From: Escherichia phage vB-Eco-KMB23
Sequence record: OR525702.1
Reading direction: 5' to 3' (one strand)
Length of the DNA stretch: 64,000 nucleotides
Part shown: one piece after another, positions 4,050-8,290 of the stretch
Layout: each line of letters starts with the position of its first letter
Position numbering within the stretch: the first letter of the stretch is position 1
Translations under genes and position numbers: made by a program
The notes under the pieces: generated by a model
Seen by the model: only the letters and a program-made list of their open reading frames with translations
The model's database searches: none
Told to the model about the DNA's origin: nothing

Positions 4050-4328
4050 TCAAAATGTAATTTCTAACCAATCACCATCACGCTGATCACTATTGACTTT
4101 AAAGCTAAATCCTTCTTTTCTCAGCCAATCACCAATTTCTTCAGTAATCAATTTATCGCGAGCAGTACAATAATAACTAAAATATGTTTTACCTTGTTCA
4201 GCTGCTTTATTAGCAAGTTCCGAAAAATCTTTAATAAAACACTCTAGCTTAAACTGTTTACTTTTAAGTGCTTTTTCACGTAATTGATTAGCAAAAGATT
4301 CATTTTCATAAAGATCATACTGTTCCAT
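4050..4328 (-). CDS. hypothetical protein (T4 24.2 position)
   Basis: 92-aa ORF with ATG start in the T4 24.2 slot; tightly packed with neighbours. Confidence 0.6.
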   Translation of the reverse strand: MEQYDLYENESFANQLREKALKSKQFKLECFIKDFSELANKAAEQGKTYFSYYCTARDKLITEEIGDWLRKEGFSFKVNSDQRDGDWLEITF

Positions 4329-4530
4329 TTTTCACCTTTTTATTAATATGCCTTTTTCTATAGACAACTTTTTCTCGAGTTTCAAATTTATTCTTAGCAG
4401 TCATAGCTCGAGCCCATAATACAGCCACTTCCTTTGCCTGTAAGTTCAATTCACGAGCAATTTCAATGAATGACTTTCCAGACTCATGAAGAGTAAACAC
4501 CACAACCTCAGTTCTCATAATCAATCTCAT
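4315..4530 (-). CDS. hypothetical small protein with possible HTH (T4 24.3 position)
   Basis: 71-aa ORF; segment SFIEIARELNLQAKEVAVLWARA resembles a helix-turn-helix; alternative ATG at 4518. Confidence 0.5.
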   Translation of the reverse strand: MRLIMRTEVVVFTLHESGKSFIEIARELNLQAKEVAVLWARAMTAKNKFETREKVVYRKRHINKKVKNGTV

Positions 4531-4619: not shown

Positions 4620-6038
4620 TTATGGATAGGTATAGATGATACCAGTTTCTAAAGCAGTTTTATGAATGATGTATCCATTACGTGATTCTTGAACATCAAC
4701 TTCTGGATAGTCTTTCATCATCTTCTGAAGGGTGTAACGATGCAGGTAGTATTTACTATCTGGATCTTCAGTTTTCCAATCTTTACCTTCTTCGGTCATT
4801 TTTTGGATTTCATCCATAACCCACCAACCGCACCAGATATAAGCCGAAGTACGATGTGGAAGAGGATGAACATAAGGCAATTCACCTTCTGGTTCTGGAG
4901 CAACTTTATCAGTTACCTGAACTTGACCTTCTGCTGTGATAGTTTTGCTATCATAATCAGTAGCAGTAACAGTTGCAGTAACTTCAATAGTTTGACTTCC
5001 AATAGATGATGTATCAACAGTGTATACATTAGTTGACCCTTCTACTGGAGAAGAATCTTTCTTCCATGAATATTCGATTTGTGCTTCTTCTGGAGCATCC
5101 GTAACATTAGCAGTAAATGTAGCCGAAGCATCTTGCTGAACGTTAATAGAAGGAGGAGTCAATGTAACCTGTGGATTCATTGTCTTCTTATTAACTGTTA
5201 ATGATACTTCATTAGAAGTAACTGTTTTTGCGTCATAATCTGTTGCTGTTACTTGCGCTACGCATTTAATTCTTTTTACTCCACTTGTAGTTGGAGTATA
5301 GCTAAATGTAGCAGAAGTCGCTTCACCAATTTGAGAATCATCTACATACCACTGATACGTAGCAGATGCCCCATCAGGTTGAGAAGCTAAGGCAGCGGTA
5401 AATTCAACGGCTGTTCCAATCACTCCAGCTGGAGGACTATCAGGAGTTACTGCCAAGGTAGTCGTCTGCGTCTTTTTATTAACAGTCAATGATACTTCAT
5501 TAGAAGTAACGCTTAGTGCATCATAATCTGCCGCAGTTACTTGAGCTACACACTTGATTTTTTTAACTCCGCTTGTGTCAGGAGTGTAATTGAATGTAGC
5601 GTCAGTTGCTTCGTCTACAGGAGAACCGTCAACGTGCCATTGATACGTAGCGTTTGCACCTGATGGCTGTGAAGCTAAGGCAGCGGTAAATTGAACGGCT
5701 GTTCCGATTACTCCTTCCGGAGGACTAGCAGGAGTTACGGCTAATGTAGTTGTCTGTGTCTTATTTTGAACCGTGATAGTTGTCGTAGTTTCTGCTGTTT
5801 CAGGTTCAGATTCTGCAACTTGATTGGTTGCAACTACTTTAATAGTCTTTTGACCGGCAGGTCCTTTTAGTACATAACTAAAAGTTGCTGACGTTTCTTC
5901 CTGTGGAGCGTCGTCTACAGTCCAAGCATATGTAATAGGTCCATCTCCAGTTTGACCACTGGGTGTAGCAGTAAACTGCTGAGTCTGATCTATAACTCCA
6001 GTAGGTGTTTTAGGAGTTATATCAACTGTAAAAGCCAT
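4620..6038 (-). CDS. hoc: highly immunogenic outer capsid protein Hoc, expanded form (472 aa)
   Basis: Repeated Ig-like modules plus C-terminal capsid-binding region; T4 hoc position; about 96 aa longer than T4 Hoc as I recall it (376 aa). Confidence 0.88.
   Translation of the reverse strand: MAFTVDITPKTPTGVIDQTQQFTATPSGQTGDGPITYAWTVDDAPQEETSATFSYVLKGPAGQKTIKVVATNQVAESEPETAETTTTITVQNKTQTTTLAVTPASPPEGVIGTAVQFTAALASQPSGANATYQWHVDGSPVDEATDATFNYTPDTSGVKKIKCVAQVTAADYDALSVTSNEVSLTVNKKTQTTTLAVTPDSPPAGVIGTAVEFTAALASQPDGASATYQWYVDDSQIGEATSATFSYTPTTSGVKRIKCVAQVTATDYDAKTVTSNEVSLTVNKKTMNPQVTLTPPSINVQQDASATFTANVTDAPEEAQIEYSWKKDSSPVEGSTNVYTVDTSSIGSQTIEVTATVTATDYDSKTITAEGQVQVTDKVAPEPEGELPYVHPLPHRTSAYIWCGWWVMDEIQKMTEEGKDWKTEDPDSKYYLHRYTLQKMMKDYPEVDVQESRNGYIIHKTALETGIIYTYP
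5176..5763. repeat. tandem duplication (2 x 288 bp) inside hoc encoding two near-identical Ig-like domains
   Basis: Direct repeat with period 288 bp (e.g. TTATTAAC(T/A)GT(T/C)AATGATACTTCATTAGAAGTAAC at 5188 and 5476); encoded 96-aa units are roughly 85 percent identical. Confidence 0.85.
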
Positions 6039-6047
6039 AAGTTATCC

Positions 6048-6728
6048 TTATTTTAATGTTACGAAAGAAGAATTACGTGTTTCACGAATTAGAACTGATC
6101 CGTCGCGATTAATGTAATAAATTAAGCTAAATAAAGTTTGGTGTGCTGACGCATGCTCAAAACTAGTTGGGTGAGATTTCCAATCCGGAGTTTCAGCAAT
6201 CCACTGGTAAATCCACCAAGGAACAGTGCAGAATCCTGGATTTTTTCCAATCAGCTGAAGATTCGGACTAAAGTTTTCCGGAAGAGTAAATACAGACGGC
6301 TTCTCAGATTCAATAATCTCAGCTACAGCCTGTTCGAATTTTTCTTCAACAAAAGGAGTATCTTCAATCAAAACATCGGTATTTTCAGGAATTTTATCCG
6401 TTTCTACTACTTCAATTTTAATGTCAGATTTAACCGGAGAATCAATCAGAAGTGCTGCCTCTGGATTGACTTCTTCATCGTCATATTTTAATCCGTCTGC
6501 AGCATCAGCAGCATCAATTAAGTCTTTAATAGATAACCCATCAGTCTCTGGCATAGGTTCACTAGCGAGCTTCTGGAGGGCTTCTTCAATATCATTAACG
6601 ATATTATCAAAAGATTTATTCTTTTTGACTTTTATACCAAACTGTTCAGCATATTCAGCTAATTTAGCTTTAGCTTCTTTATTATCATCAAGAGCCTTCA
6701 GCTCTGCAATATAATCTTTATCTATCAT
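6048..6728 (-). CDS. inh: inhibitor of prohead protease Inh (226 aa)
   Basis: 226 aa, acidic; position between hoc and uvsW as in T4. Confidence 0.8.
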   Translation of the reverse strand: MIDKDYIAELKALDDNKEAKAKLAEYAEQFGIKVKKNKSFDNIVNDIEEALQKLASEPMPETDGLSIKDLIDAADAADGLKYDDEEVNPEAALLIDSPVKSDIKIEVVETDKIPENTDVLIEDTPFVEEKFEQAVAEIIESEKPSVFTLPENFSPNLQLIGKNPGFCTVPWWIYQWIAETPDWKSHPTSFEHASAHQTLFSLIYYINRDGSVLIRETRNSSFVTLK

Positions 6729-6778
6729 AATATTTCCTCAGTATAAATATAGATATATTTATTACATGGTATTTAGAC

Positions 6779-8290
6779 ATGACTGACATTAAAGTACATT
6801 TTTATGATTTTAGTCACGTGAGAATTGATTGTGAAGAAAGTACATTTCATGAACTCCGTGATTTCTTTAGCTTTGAAGCTGATGGGTATCGTTTTAATCC
6901 GAAGTACAAATATGGCCACTGGGATGGACGAATTCGTCTTTTAGATTATAATCGCCTTCTTCCATTCGGCTTAGTCGGGCAAATTAAAAAGTTCTGTGAT
7001 AACTTTGGCTATAAAGCCTGGATTGACCCACAAATTAACGAAAAAGAAGAATTATCAAGAAAAGATTTTGATGAATGGCTTTCTAAATTAGAAATCTATT
7101 CAGGAAATAAAAGAATTGAACCGCACTGGTATCAAAAAGATGCAGTGTTCGAAGGATTAGTTAATCGTCGTAGAATTCTTAATCTTCCAACATCCGCTGG
7201 TAAATCGTTAATTCAAGCTTTGCTTGCGCGATATTATTTGGAAAATTATGAAGGTAAAATTCTTATCATTGTTCCAACAACTGCCTTAACAACTCAGATG
7301 GCTGATGACTTTGTTGACTATCGTTTATTCAGTCATGCAATGATAAAGAAAATTGGTGGCGGAGCATCAAAAGATGATAAATATAAAAATGATGCACCGG
7401 TCGTTGTTGGTACATGGCAAACTGTAGTAAAACAACCAAAAGAATGGTTCTCACAGTTTGGAATGATGATGAATGATGAATGCCATCTTGCTACAGGAAA
7501 AAGTATTTCATCTATCATATCTGGTTTAAATAACTGCATGTTCAAATTCGGTTTGTCCGGTTCATTACGTGATGGCAAAGCTAATATCATGCAGTATGTT
7601 GGAATGTTTGGTGAAATATTTAAGCCAGTAACGACTTCTAAGTTAATGGAAGATGGACAAGTAACTGAGCTAAAAATTAATAGTATTTTTCTTCGCTATC
7701 CCGATGAGTTCACTACTAAATTAAAGGGAAAAACTTATCAAGAAGAAATAAAAATTATTACGGGGCTTAGTAAAAGAAATAAATGGATCGCTAAATTGGC
7801 TATTAAGCTTGCACAAAAAGATGAAAACGCTTTTGTCATGTTTAAACATGTATCACATGGTAAAGCTATTTTCGATTTAATTAAAAATGAATACGATAAA
7901 GTTTATTACGTATCAGGGGAAGTTGATACCGAAACCCGCAATATAATGAAAACCTTAGCTGAAAACGGTAAAGGAATAATTATAGTCGCTAGTTATGGTG
8001 TATTTTCTACTGGTATTTCAGTTAAAAATCTGCATCACGTTGTTTTAGCGCACGGTGTTAAATCAAAAATCATTGTATTACAAACAATCGGTCGTGTATT
8101 ACGTAAGCACGGTTCTAAGACAATAGCAACCGTCTGGGACCTCATCGATGATTGTGGTGTTAAGCCAAAATCTGCTAATACGAAAAAGAAATACGTTCAT
8201 TTGAACTATCTTTTAAAACATGGCATTGATCGTATTCAGCGCTACGCAGATGAAAAATTTAATTACGTAATGAAAACAGTTAATTTATAA
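6779..8290 (+). CDS. uvsW: UvsW DNA/RNA helicase (503 aa)
   Basis: SF2 helicase motifs: Walker A LPTSAGKS and DExH-like MMNDECH; T4 position and length. Confidence 0.95.
   Translation: MTDIKVHFYDFSHVRIDCEESTFHELRDFFSFEADGYRFNPKYKYGHWDGRIRLLDYNRLLPFGLVGQIKKFCDNFGYKAWIDPQINEKEELSRKDFDEWLSKLEIYSGNKRIEPHWYQKDAVFEGLVNRRRILNLPTSAGKSLIQALLARYYLENYEGKILIIVPTTALTTQMADDFVDYRLFSHAMIKKIGGGASKDDKYKNDAPVVVGTWQTVVKQPKEWFSQFGMMMNDECHLATGKSISSIISGLNNCMFKFGLSGSLRDGKANIMQYVGMFGEIFKPVTTSKLMEDGQVTELKINSIFLRYPDEFTTKLKGKTYQEEIKIITGLSKRNKWIAKLAIKLAQKDENAFVMFKHVSHGKAIFDLIKNEYDKVYYVSGEVDTETRNIMKTLAENGKGIIIVASYGVFSTGISVKNLHHVVLAHGVKSKIIVLQTIGRVLRKHGSKTIATVWDLIDDCGVKPKSANTKKKYVHLNYLLKHGIDRIQRYADEKFNYVMKTVNL

Follow-up and report, generated by a model that had tools for sequence, protein, structure and literature searches.

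The hoc gene of Escherichia phage vB-Eco-KMB23 lies on the minus strand at positions 4620–6038 of the window, a stretch of 64,000 nucleotides from sequence record OR525702.1, and its middle part consists of two tandem 288-bp units that each encode one immunoglobulin (Ig)-like domain. The identification of this open reading frame (ORF) as hoc, already made in an earlier reading based on the letters of the DNA (the sequence-only reading), is borne out by database matches and by synteny. The 472-amino-acid (aa) product matches PHROG 1149 ('Hoc-like head decoration') at 6.6e-140 and the T4 Hoc chain 5vf3_Z of the PDB at 2e-215 (phmmer), while the order and lengths of the surrounding ORFs equal those in the T4 annotation and in annotated relatives, with the inh–hoc–24.3 synteny kept. 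The protein is 100% identical, over all 472 residues, to the deposited Hoc of vB-Eco-KMB23 (P0009). Among Pfam families, PKD matches above the gathering score (5.8e-09), and Ig_2, Ig_3 and I-set match more weakly. The gene is organized as follows:

4620–6038, minus strand: hoc coding sequence from the ORF list, 472 aa and stop codon, highly immunogenic outer capsid (head decoration) protein

5769–6038, minus strand: Ig-like domain 1 (residues 1–90), aligning to residues 1–90 of T4 Hoc; β-strands in the AlphaFold2 model with a predicted local distance difference test (pLDDT) score of about 90

5481–5768, minus strand: repeat unit A (residues 91–186), the first 96-aa Ig-like copy, of A-type, with the signature ...VDGSPVDEATDATFNYTP...VKKIK...

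5193–5480, minus strand: repeat unit B (residues 187–282), the second copy, of B-type, with the signature ...VDDSQIGEATSATFSYTP...VKRIK...

4905–5192, minus strand: Ig-like domain matching domain 3 of T4 Hoc (residues 283–378), aligning to T4 residues 187–282; a β-sandwich in the AlphaFold2 model with pLDDT of about 90

4620–4904, minus strand: C-terminal capsid-binding domain (residues 379–472) and stop codon, homologous to T4 Hoc residues 283–376

Three procedures agree on the repeat. Tandem Repeats Finder reports a period of 288 with 2.0 copies at 5182–5762 (78% matches, score 724), and a repeat search places the two copies at 5182–5469 and 5470–5757 with 78% identity. An offset scan finds self-similarity over nucleotides ~268–861 of hoc, that is, ~5178–5771 of the window, in line with the span of 5176–5763 given by the sequence-only reading. 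The period equals exactly 96 codons and is in frame with the 472-aa ORF; the score and length of the repeat exclude a chance origin. Units A and B differ at about 66 of 288 nucleotides and are 77–78% identical in DNA and 80–82% identical in protein, depending on the phase chosen. The high similarity that had been noted from the letters therefore stands, but the value of roughly 85% attached to it does not. The two units are indeed far closer to each other than other Ig domains of Hoc, which share 27–37% identity with one another or with units A and B. A global alignment to the 376-aa Hoc of T4 leaves one clean gap of 96 aa, so that the additional 96 aa correspond to one whole Ig-like domain, homologous to T4 domain 2. 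T4 thus has one domain fewer, as had been predicted, though it represents just one state of a polymorphism that ranges from two to six Ig domains.

A tandem repeat always carries some risk of having been expanded by the assembler, and beyond this general risk nothing points to an artefact. The copies diverge by ~22%, which allows reads to be placed unambiguously, and the reading frame is intact. Near-identical 1419-bp genes are present in dozens of independently sequenced phages, and the identical protein is deposited for vB-Eco-KMB23 itself. We give an assembly artefact practically no weight.

We built an AlphaFold2 model on 121 Hoc sequences. It features four successive β-sandwich domains with pLDDT of about 90, separated by boundaries near residues 92, 188 and 284; each 96-aa unit therefore corresponds to exactly one structural domain. 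Ig-like domain 1 shares 35% identity with units A and B, and the domain that follows unit B is additionally matched by Pfam Ig_3 and I-set at residues 289–373. The best Foldseek matches to the model are strings of four Ig domains, and the RB49 Hoc structure 3SHS is matched as well (E = 2.3e-10). The top matches are generic eukaryotic Ig strings with low template modelling scores, because the inter-domain angles differ, and support no conclusion more specific than a 'string of Ig domains'. The C-terminal domain, modelled with low confidence in isolation from the capsid, is matched by PHROG 21694 at residues 408–472 (1.4e-41). Over residues 379–472 it differs from T4 Hoc residues 283–376 at 2 of 94 positions; in T4 Hoc, residues 281–376 have been defined as the capsid-binding domain (Fokine et al. 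2023, PMC10385173).

The sequence-only reading had taken the repeat for a recent duplication, an interpretation that has two points in its favour: units A and B are exactly adjacent and in frame, and at 80% aa identity they stand well apart from any other pair of Ig domains in Hoc (27–37%). Synonymous sites contradict it. Between A and B, the Nei-Gojobori estimates are 0.135 for nonsynonymous divergence (dN) and 0.98 for synonymous divergence (dS), giving a dN/dS ratio of 0.14; in eight other two-unit phages, dS between the A and B units is 0.66–1.19. Orthologous units of nine two-unit (four-Ig) phages have a median dS of 0.33–0.39 and a maximum of 0.53–0.64. The dS between A and B in vB-Eco-KMB23 is therefore two to three times the median orthologous dS among the sampled Tequatroviruses, and the synonymous divergence of the two copies is near saturation.

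In a neighbour-joining tree, moreover, units from different phages cluster according to their type and position, and not according to the genome they come from. DNA identities span 83–99% among A units and 79–99.7% among B units, but 72–82% between A and B units, and in each of the ten two-unit genes examined, the first unit can be told from the second at 29 diagnostic nucleotide sites. Unit A of vB-Eco-KMB23 is of A-type at all 29 sites and most closely resembles the first units of phiD1, PYps10T and ime09 (93–94% nucleotide identity). Unit B has its counterparts in domain 2 of T4 and in unit 3 of the four-unit array of Sfk20, with nucleotide identities of 99.7% to unit 2 of phiD1, 88.9% to the single unit of T4 and 86.8% to Sfk20 unit 3. 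Within unit B, diagnostic sites 156–158 and 239–256 fall in short A-type patches. Unit B is thus closer to the single unit of T4 than to unit A of its own gene (77%), and A and B are positionally orthologous to the units of phiD1, RB27, Sf21, Sf23, CAM-21, G2540-3 and others. Across the 50 multi-unit Hocs sampled, aa identity stays at or below 83% in all 70 pairs of units from the same protein, and no truly young duplicate was present anywhere among them. A duplication specific to a recent lineage predicts copies that are nearly identical at synonymous sites and that group together; neither was found. We conclude that A and B are old paralogues, both under purifying selection, and that a recent tandem duplication of domain 2 in the lineage of vB-Eco-KMB23 is very improbable. 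The near-saturated dS, combined with dN/dS ratios of about 0.14–0.28, shows that conservation acts on every unit type separately, in keeping with a distinct function for each unit.

To place the two-unit gene among its relatives, we surveyed hoc copy number, as the sequence-only reading had suggested. A megablast search returned 658 GenBank phage records with a match to hoc, and lengths were taken from an evenly spaced sample of 60 of these records and from representatives of 90%-identity clusters. In the 60-record sample, a hoc of 1419 or 1425 bp was found 18 times and one of ~1131 bp about 34 times; F2 and PNJ-9 contribute two genes of ~845 bp, and Sfk20 one of 1995 bp. Among the best 120 protein clusters, 78 have 376 aa, 30 have 472 or 468 aa and eight have 568 or 570 aa; several of the 472-aa clusters contain 58–167 member sequences. 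The 472-aa allele is therefore common and already deposited, and the hoc of vB-Eco-KMB23 in itself adds nothing new. Within Tequatrovirus, Hoc lengths follow 280 + 96n aa, with n ranging from 0 to 4, so that close relatives form a discrete series in steps of one whole unit:

F2: 280 aa, n = 0

T4: 376 aa, n = 1

vB-Eco-KMB23: 472 aa, n = 2

UGKSEcP1 and UGKSEcP2: 568 and 570 aa, n = 3

Sfk20: 664 aa, n = 4

Clustering of 200 units (134 distinct) resolved an A-like and a B-like group. The B-like group comprises three subtypes, namely cluster 9, clusters 1 and 10, and cluster 7, the last of which is recognized by the signature 'GSLVDGETTTT'. Written in these terms, the arrays read:

Sfk20: A, 9, 1, 7

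UGKSEcP1: A, 1, 7

vB-Eco-KMB23 and phiD1: A, 1

RB27, Sf23 and CAM-21: A, 9 or A, 10

ime09 and HP3: A, 7

T4: 10

The pair A, B of vB-Eco-KMB23 corresponds to units 1 and 3 of Sfk20 and to units 1 and 2 of UGKSEcP1. An A-type unit leads 46 of 49 multi-unit arrays when units are typed by signature, and 48 of 49 when they are typed by clustering. Behind it, the B subtypes keep the order 9, then 1 or 10, then 7, as in Sfk20, in all nine arrays of at least three units. Given that two-unit arrays differ in their B subtype while the order remains constant, a '472-aa Hoc' is not one class: its two units represent at least three different selections from a longer ordered array. For ime09 and HP3, an origin of the second unit by gene conversion between A and B was considered. 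It was rejected because the three- and four-unit arrays reveal these second units to be a distinct third type, orthologous to Sfk20 unit 4.

The commonest architecture is a single A-type unit (76 of 145 typed proteins). At the diagnostic sites, the single-unit genes of T4, RB51 and ESH35 are of B-type and those of PYps10T, GiZh and CM8 are of A-type, whereas RB33 is a chimera with an A-type 5′ part and a B-type 3′ part. Going along the unit, a change from A-type to B-type is also discernible in GiZh and CM8. No clear chimera of the opposite polarity was found among ten single-unit genes, apart from patches shared with the B units of multi-unit genes. The A(5′)–B(3′) polarity is what in-register unequal crossing-over, resulting in a deletion within the array, leaves behind. 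Genes that are otherwise nearly identical can differ by one unit, revealing that array turnover is ongoing. Of the 1131 nucleotides shared by the hoc genes of PYps10T (one unit, L034) and HP3 (two units, L025), 7 are different, and the two genes are otherwise set apart by exactly one 288-bp unit, which represents a very recent copy-number change between a phage of a Yersinia host and a phage of an E. coli host. Likewise, the DNA of domain 1 is identical in RB51 and Sf23, and the A unit makes the difference between these genes.

Changes on other scales and in other lineages were also observed in Hoc. Within the repeat unit of the 386-aa Hoc of vB_EcoM_G50 (L039, 401–1561), 10 aa are duplicated (...ENYNEKEVTSNEDNEKEVTSNE...), a smaller-scale slippage in the same region. 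A 472-aa Hoc from the Logan assemblies (P0083) has a second unit that is only 54% identical to the first (...NQPASAVIAYTWKVDGSTISGQTQSTFKYIP...), and thus holds a different and much more diverged Ig module in that slot. A scan of IMG/VR yielded 21 loci with few close relatives and was used mainly as an outgroup. Two of these loci, from another genus of Tevenvirinae, encode Hocs of 472 and 471 aa (L006, 401–1819; L007, 401–1816) that are ~49% identical to the Hoc of vB-Eco-KMB23 and carry an independent tandem duplication of a domain-3-like Ig module, with a self-offset of 94–95 aa. Their relatives L008–L013 have 373–377 aa, and L012 has 282 aa. This duplication and the lengths of the relatives indicate that gain and loss of whole domains recur across the Hoc family.

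Taken together, we consider it probable that the hoc gene of vB-Eco-KMB23 is one state of an old Ig array of zero to four units, in which the units are old paralogues and the array changes by in-register unequal recombination. This explanation draws on direct observations: the repeat, the divergence of its copies, their positional orthology, the length series, the ordered unit types, the chimeras and the one-unit difference between near-identical genes. In the proposed mechanism, zero to four paralogous 288-bp units would lie between an invariant domain 1 and an invariant domain 3, and the array states would interconvert by in-register unequal homologous recombination between the units. Such events would delete or add whole Ig domains while keeping the frame, and would leave A(5′)–B(3′) chimeric units behind. 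As the single unit of T4 is of B-type, T4 is a state without an A unit.

A rival scenario would be gain rather than loss. A and B could once have been alternative alleles of a single domain 2 in different phages. Out-of-register recombination during co-infection, at the short conserved linker and the unit ends, could then have assembled the multi-unit arrays, that of vB-Eco-KMB23 among them; the divergence of A and B would then reflect allelic age and not the age of a duplication. The existence of both pure A-type and pure B-type single-unit genes, and the prevalence of the single A-type unit, speak for such a scenario. Moreover, hoc is mosaic between phages, with several-fold differences in dS from one domain to another within a pair, and T4-type phages recombine heavily on co-infection. 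Gain would, however, be expected to produce either unit order, whereas an A-type unit almost always comes first and all nine arrays of at least three units follow the order of Sfk20. All clear chimeras have the A(5′)–B(3′) polarity that deletion within an array gives, and the first gain from single-unit genes would be limited to about 12–18 nucleotides of linker homology. Build-up by gain therefore appears unlikely to us.

Several points weigh against the preferred reading of an old array changed by in-register recombination. Unit typing is blurred by mosaicism and gene conversion: the unit of PNJ-9 is a mosaic, and the B units of vB-Eco-KMB23 and phiD1 contain A-type patches. In register, A and B share no identical run longer than 22–23 nucleotides (unit nucleotides 77–98 and 259–281), and as a consequence unequal exchange within this particular pair may be infrequent and the pair fairly stable. 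The census represents a systematic sample of 60 of the 658 records and the representatives of 90%-identity clusters. The data fit an ancestral long array with subsequent losses as well as gains from single-unit alleles. Finally, capsid binding, fibre length and glycan binding of the 472-aa form are deduced from its sequence.

The genes around hoc retain the arrangement known from T4, with rnlB, 24.2 and 24.3 located downstream, and inh followed by uvsW located upstream. Putative expression signals flank the coding sequence:

6045–6049, minus strand: AAGGA motif resembling a Shine-Dalgarno sequence, read from the sequence, 6 nucleotides upstream of the hoc ATG and overlapping the inh stop codon

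4598–4615, minus strand: terminator-like GC-rich stem-loop AAGGGGCTTCGGCCCCTT with a T-rich tail, from a consensus scan and the sequence, 4 nucleotides past the hoc stop codon

Terminators are annotated at the equivalent site 3′ of hoc in G2540-3, GiZh and G50. A plus-strand ORF of 106 aa at 4689–5009, antisense to hoc, was dismissed as spurious, being a mechanical ORF within a well-supported gene. The genes inh (6048–6728, minus strand) and uvsW (6779–8290, plus strand) are only 50 bp apart (6729–6778). In T4, the homing endonuclease gene segE sits between these two genes; the 50-bp gap reveals that vB-Eco-KMB23 lacks segE at that position. The 24.3 homologue (4315–4530, minus strand) encodes 71 aa, compared to 56 aa (171 bp) in T4 and 204–216 bp in most relatives, and the start codon or N-terminus of 24.3 appears to vary among relatives.

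A few of the records examined in the survey deserve comment. In H10 (FriedrichMiescher), H13, H18, H56 (ACG-C40), H87 (T2 PV648364) and H89, the hoc annotation is split into two or three parts or has a length outside the series (such as 1132, 1117 or 1474 bp), which suggests frameshifted or interrupted genes. Hoc is dispensable in the laboratory, which would fit interruption of the gene. Record MG010123.1, 'Staphylococcus phage SAJK-IND' (32,172 bp, hit H4), contains a hoc that is 95.1% identical to that of vB-Eco-KMB23 and is probably a mislabelled or contaminated record of T4-like coliphage sequence. Two Hoc clusters, P0038 and P0062, carry the names 'endonuclease [Shigella sonnei]' and 'endonuclease [Bacillus cereus]'; the endonuclease names appear to be annotation errors, and the organisms hint at phage sequence in bacterial assemblies. 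The taxonomy line of HP3 (NC_041919.1, L025) reads 'Caudoviricetes; Rosemountvirus' despite a typical Tequatrovirus hoc region, and is probably a record error.

T4 Hoc (376 aa; PDB 5vf3 chain Z, 8t1x and others) is encoded at the same locus as the Hoc of vB-Eco-KMB23, between inh and 24.3. Domain 2 of T4 Hoc is a 96-aa unit of the same kind as unit B. T4 has a single B-type unit and three Ig-like domains, whereas vB-Eco-KMB23 has an A unit followed by a B unit and four Ig-like domains. The Hocs of the Shigella phage Sfk20 (664 aa, four units) and of the Escherichia phages UGKSEcP1 and UGKSEcP2 (568 and 570 aa, three units) share the unit family, the flanking domains and the unit order with it, but have one or two units more, including the 'GSLVDGETTTT' type that is absent from vB-Eco-KMB23. 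PNJ-9 (283 aa) and F2 (280 aa) are likewise natural length variants of Hoc that differ by whole domains, and PNJ-9 Hoc binds MUC2 via its domain 2, a member of the same unit family as A and B (PMC11853027). Both are contraction states, through the absence of domain 3 in PNJ-9 and of any repeat unit in F2; relative to T4, the Hoc of vB-Eco-KMB23 is an expansion state.

On a wider scale, Hoc homologues carry 1–10 Ig domains (PMC10385173). At the upper end, the Hoc-like protein of Serratia phage Muldoon (1174 aa, 10 Ig-like domains; PMC10385173) also combines a string of Ig domains with a conserved C-terminal capsid anchor, but proteins of this kind are distant homologues from other genera. A search for relevant terms in PMC10385173 returned no mention of a polymorphism of 96-aa units within a genus. 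A case that appears analogous is provided by the BACON-domain tandem repeats of crAss-like phages (de Jonge et al. 2019, PMC6949934), where a phage structural protein has a variable tandem copy number of a carbohydrate-binding-type domain; both the domain family and the protein are unrelated to Hoc. The literature found on Hoc domain copy number consists of general statements on variable Ig number and of the PNJ-9 deletion variant. In the literature searched, which took in few papers from subscription journals, we found no explicit account of an ordered array of zero to four units or of T4 as a phage without the A unit, and no paper that names vB-Eco-KMB23. The variable number of Ig domains, a domain-deletion variant and the two-unit hoc in dozens of GenBank genomes are thus already known; what is added here is an old, ordered and copy-number-variable array of Ig units.

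The near-identical C-terminal domain, read together with the work on T4 Hoc (PMC10385173), suggests that one copy of the 472-aa Hoc would occupy the centre of each gp23 hexamer of the mature capsid with its Ig string pointing outward, as T4 Hoc does. Its fibre would be longer by approximately one Ig domain, or about 4–4.5 nm when the published length of 180 Å is divided among the four domains of T4 Hoc. The extra domain would provide one more module for surface or glycan binding, or one more antigenic module. Binding to mucin glycans has been demonstrated experimentally for the Hocs of T4, PNJ-6 and PNJ-9 (PMC9271167, PMC11853027), and no report of such binding for any 472-aa Hoc was found in the literature searched. 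The contacts to mucin involve domain 1 in PNJ-6 and domain 2 in PNJ-9, and a natural Hoc that lacks domain 3 still binds MUC2 (PMC11853027). The D246N substitution, located in domain 3 of T4 Hoc, has been proposed to alter glycan binding (PMC9271167). HP3, whose Hoc has 472 aa, bound mucin worse than the podophage ES17 (PMC7885116), indicating that an extra domain is no guarantee of mucus adherence. The suggestion in the sequence-only reading that the additional domain lengthens the fibre and may change adherence is nevertheless a reasonable conjecture.

Hoc is the display platform of T4. In T4-like phages, which include many candidates for therapy, it is the main capsid antigen and has been proposed to mediate adherence to mucus. 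About 30% of the sampled Tequatroviruses, or about a third, have a four-Ig Hoc, and the others have two to six Ig domains. Because both the number of Ig domains and the combination of units vary, results obtained with the three-Ig Hoc of T4 should not be assumed to transfer to other phages. The array offers natural in-frame variants in length and composition with which adherence, immunogenicity and aggregation can be tested. A further and more tentative idea, which we regard as possible but rather doubtful, is that the middle region of hoc serves as a combinatorial array at the level of domains: unequal recombination among at least four old Ig units would vary both the fibre length and the modules displayed, and the variation would be maintained by selection for adherence to mucus or host surfaces or for escape from anti-Hoc antibodies. 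If this is true, the hoc array would be comparable to a contingency locus, here for a protein of the virion surface.

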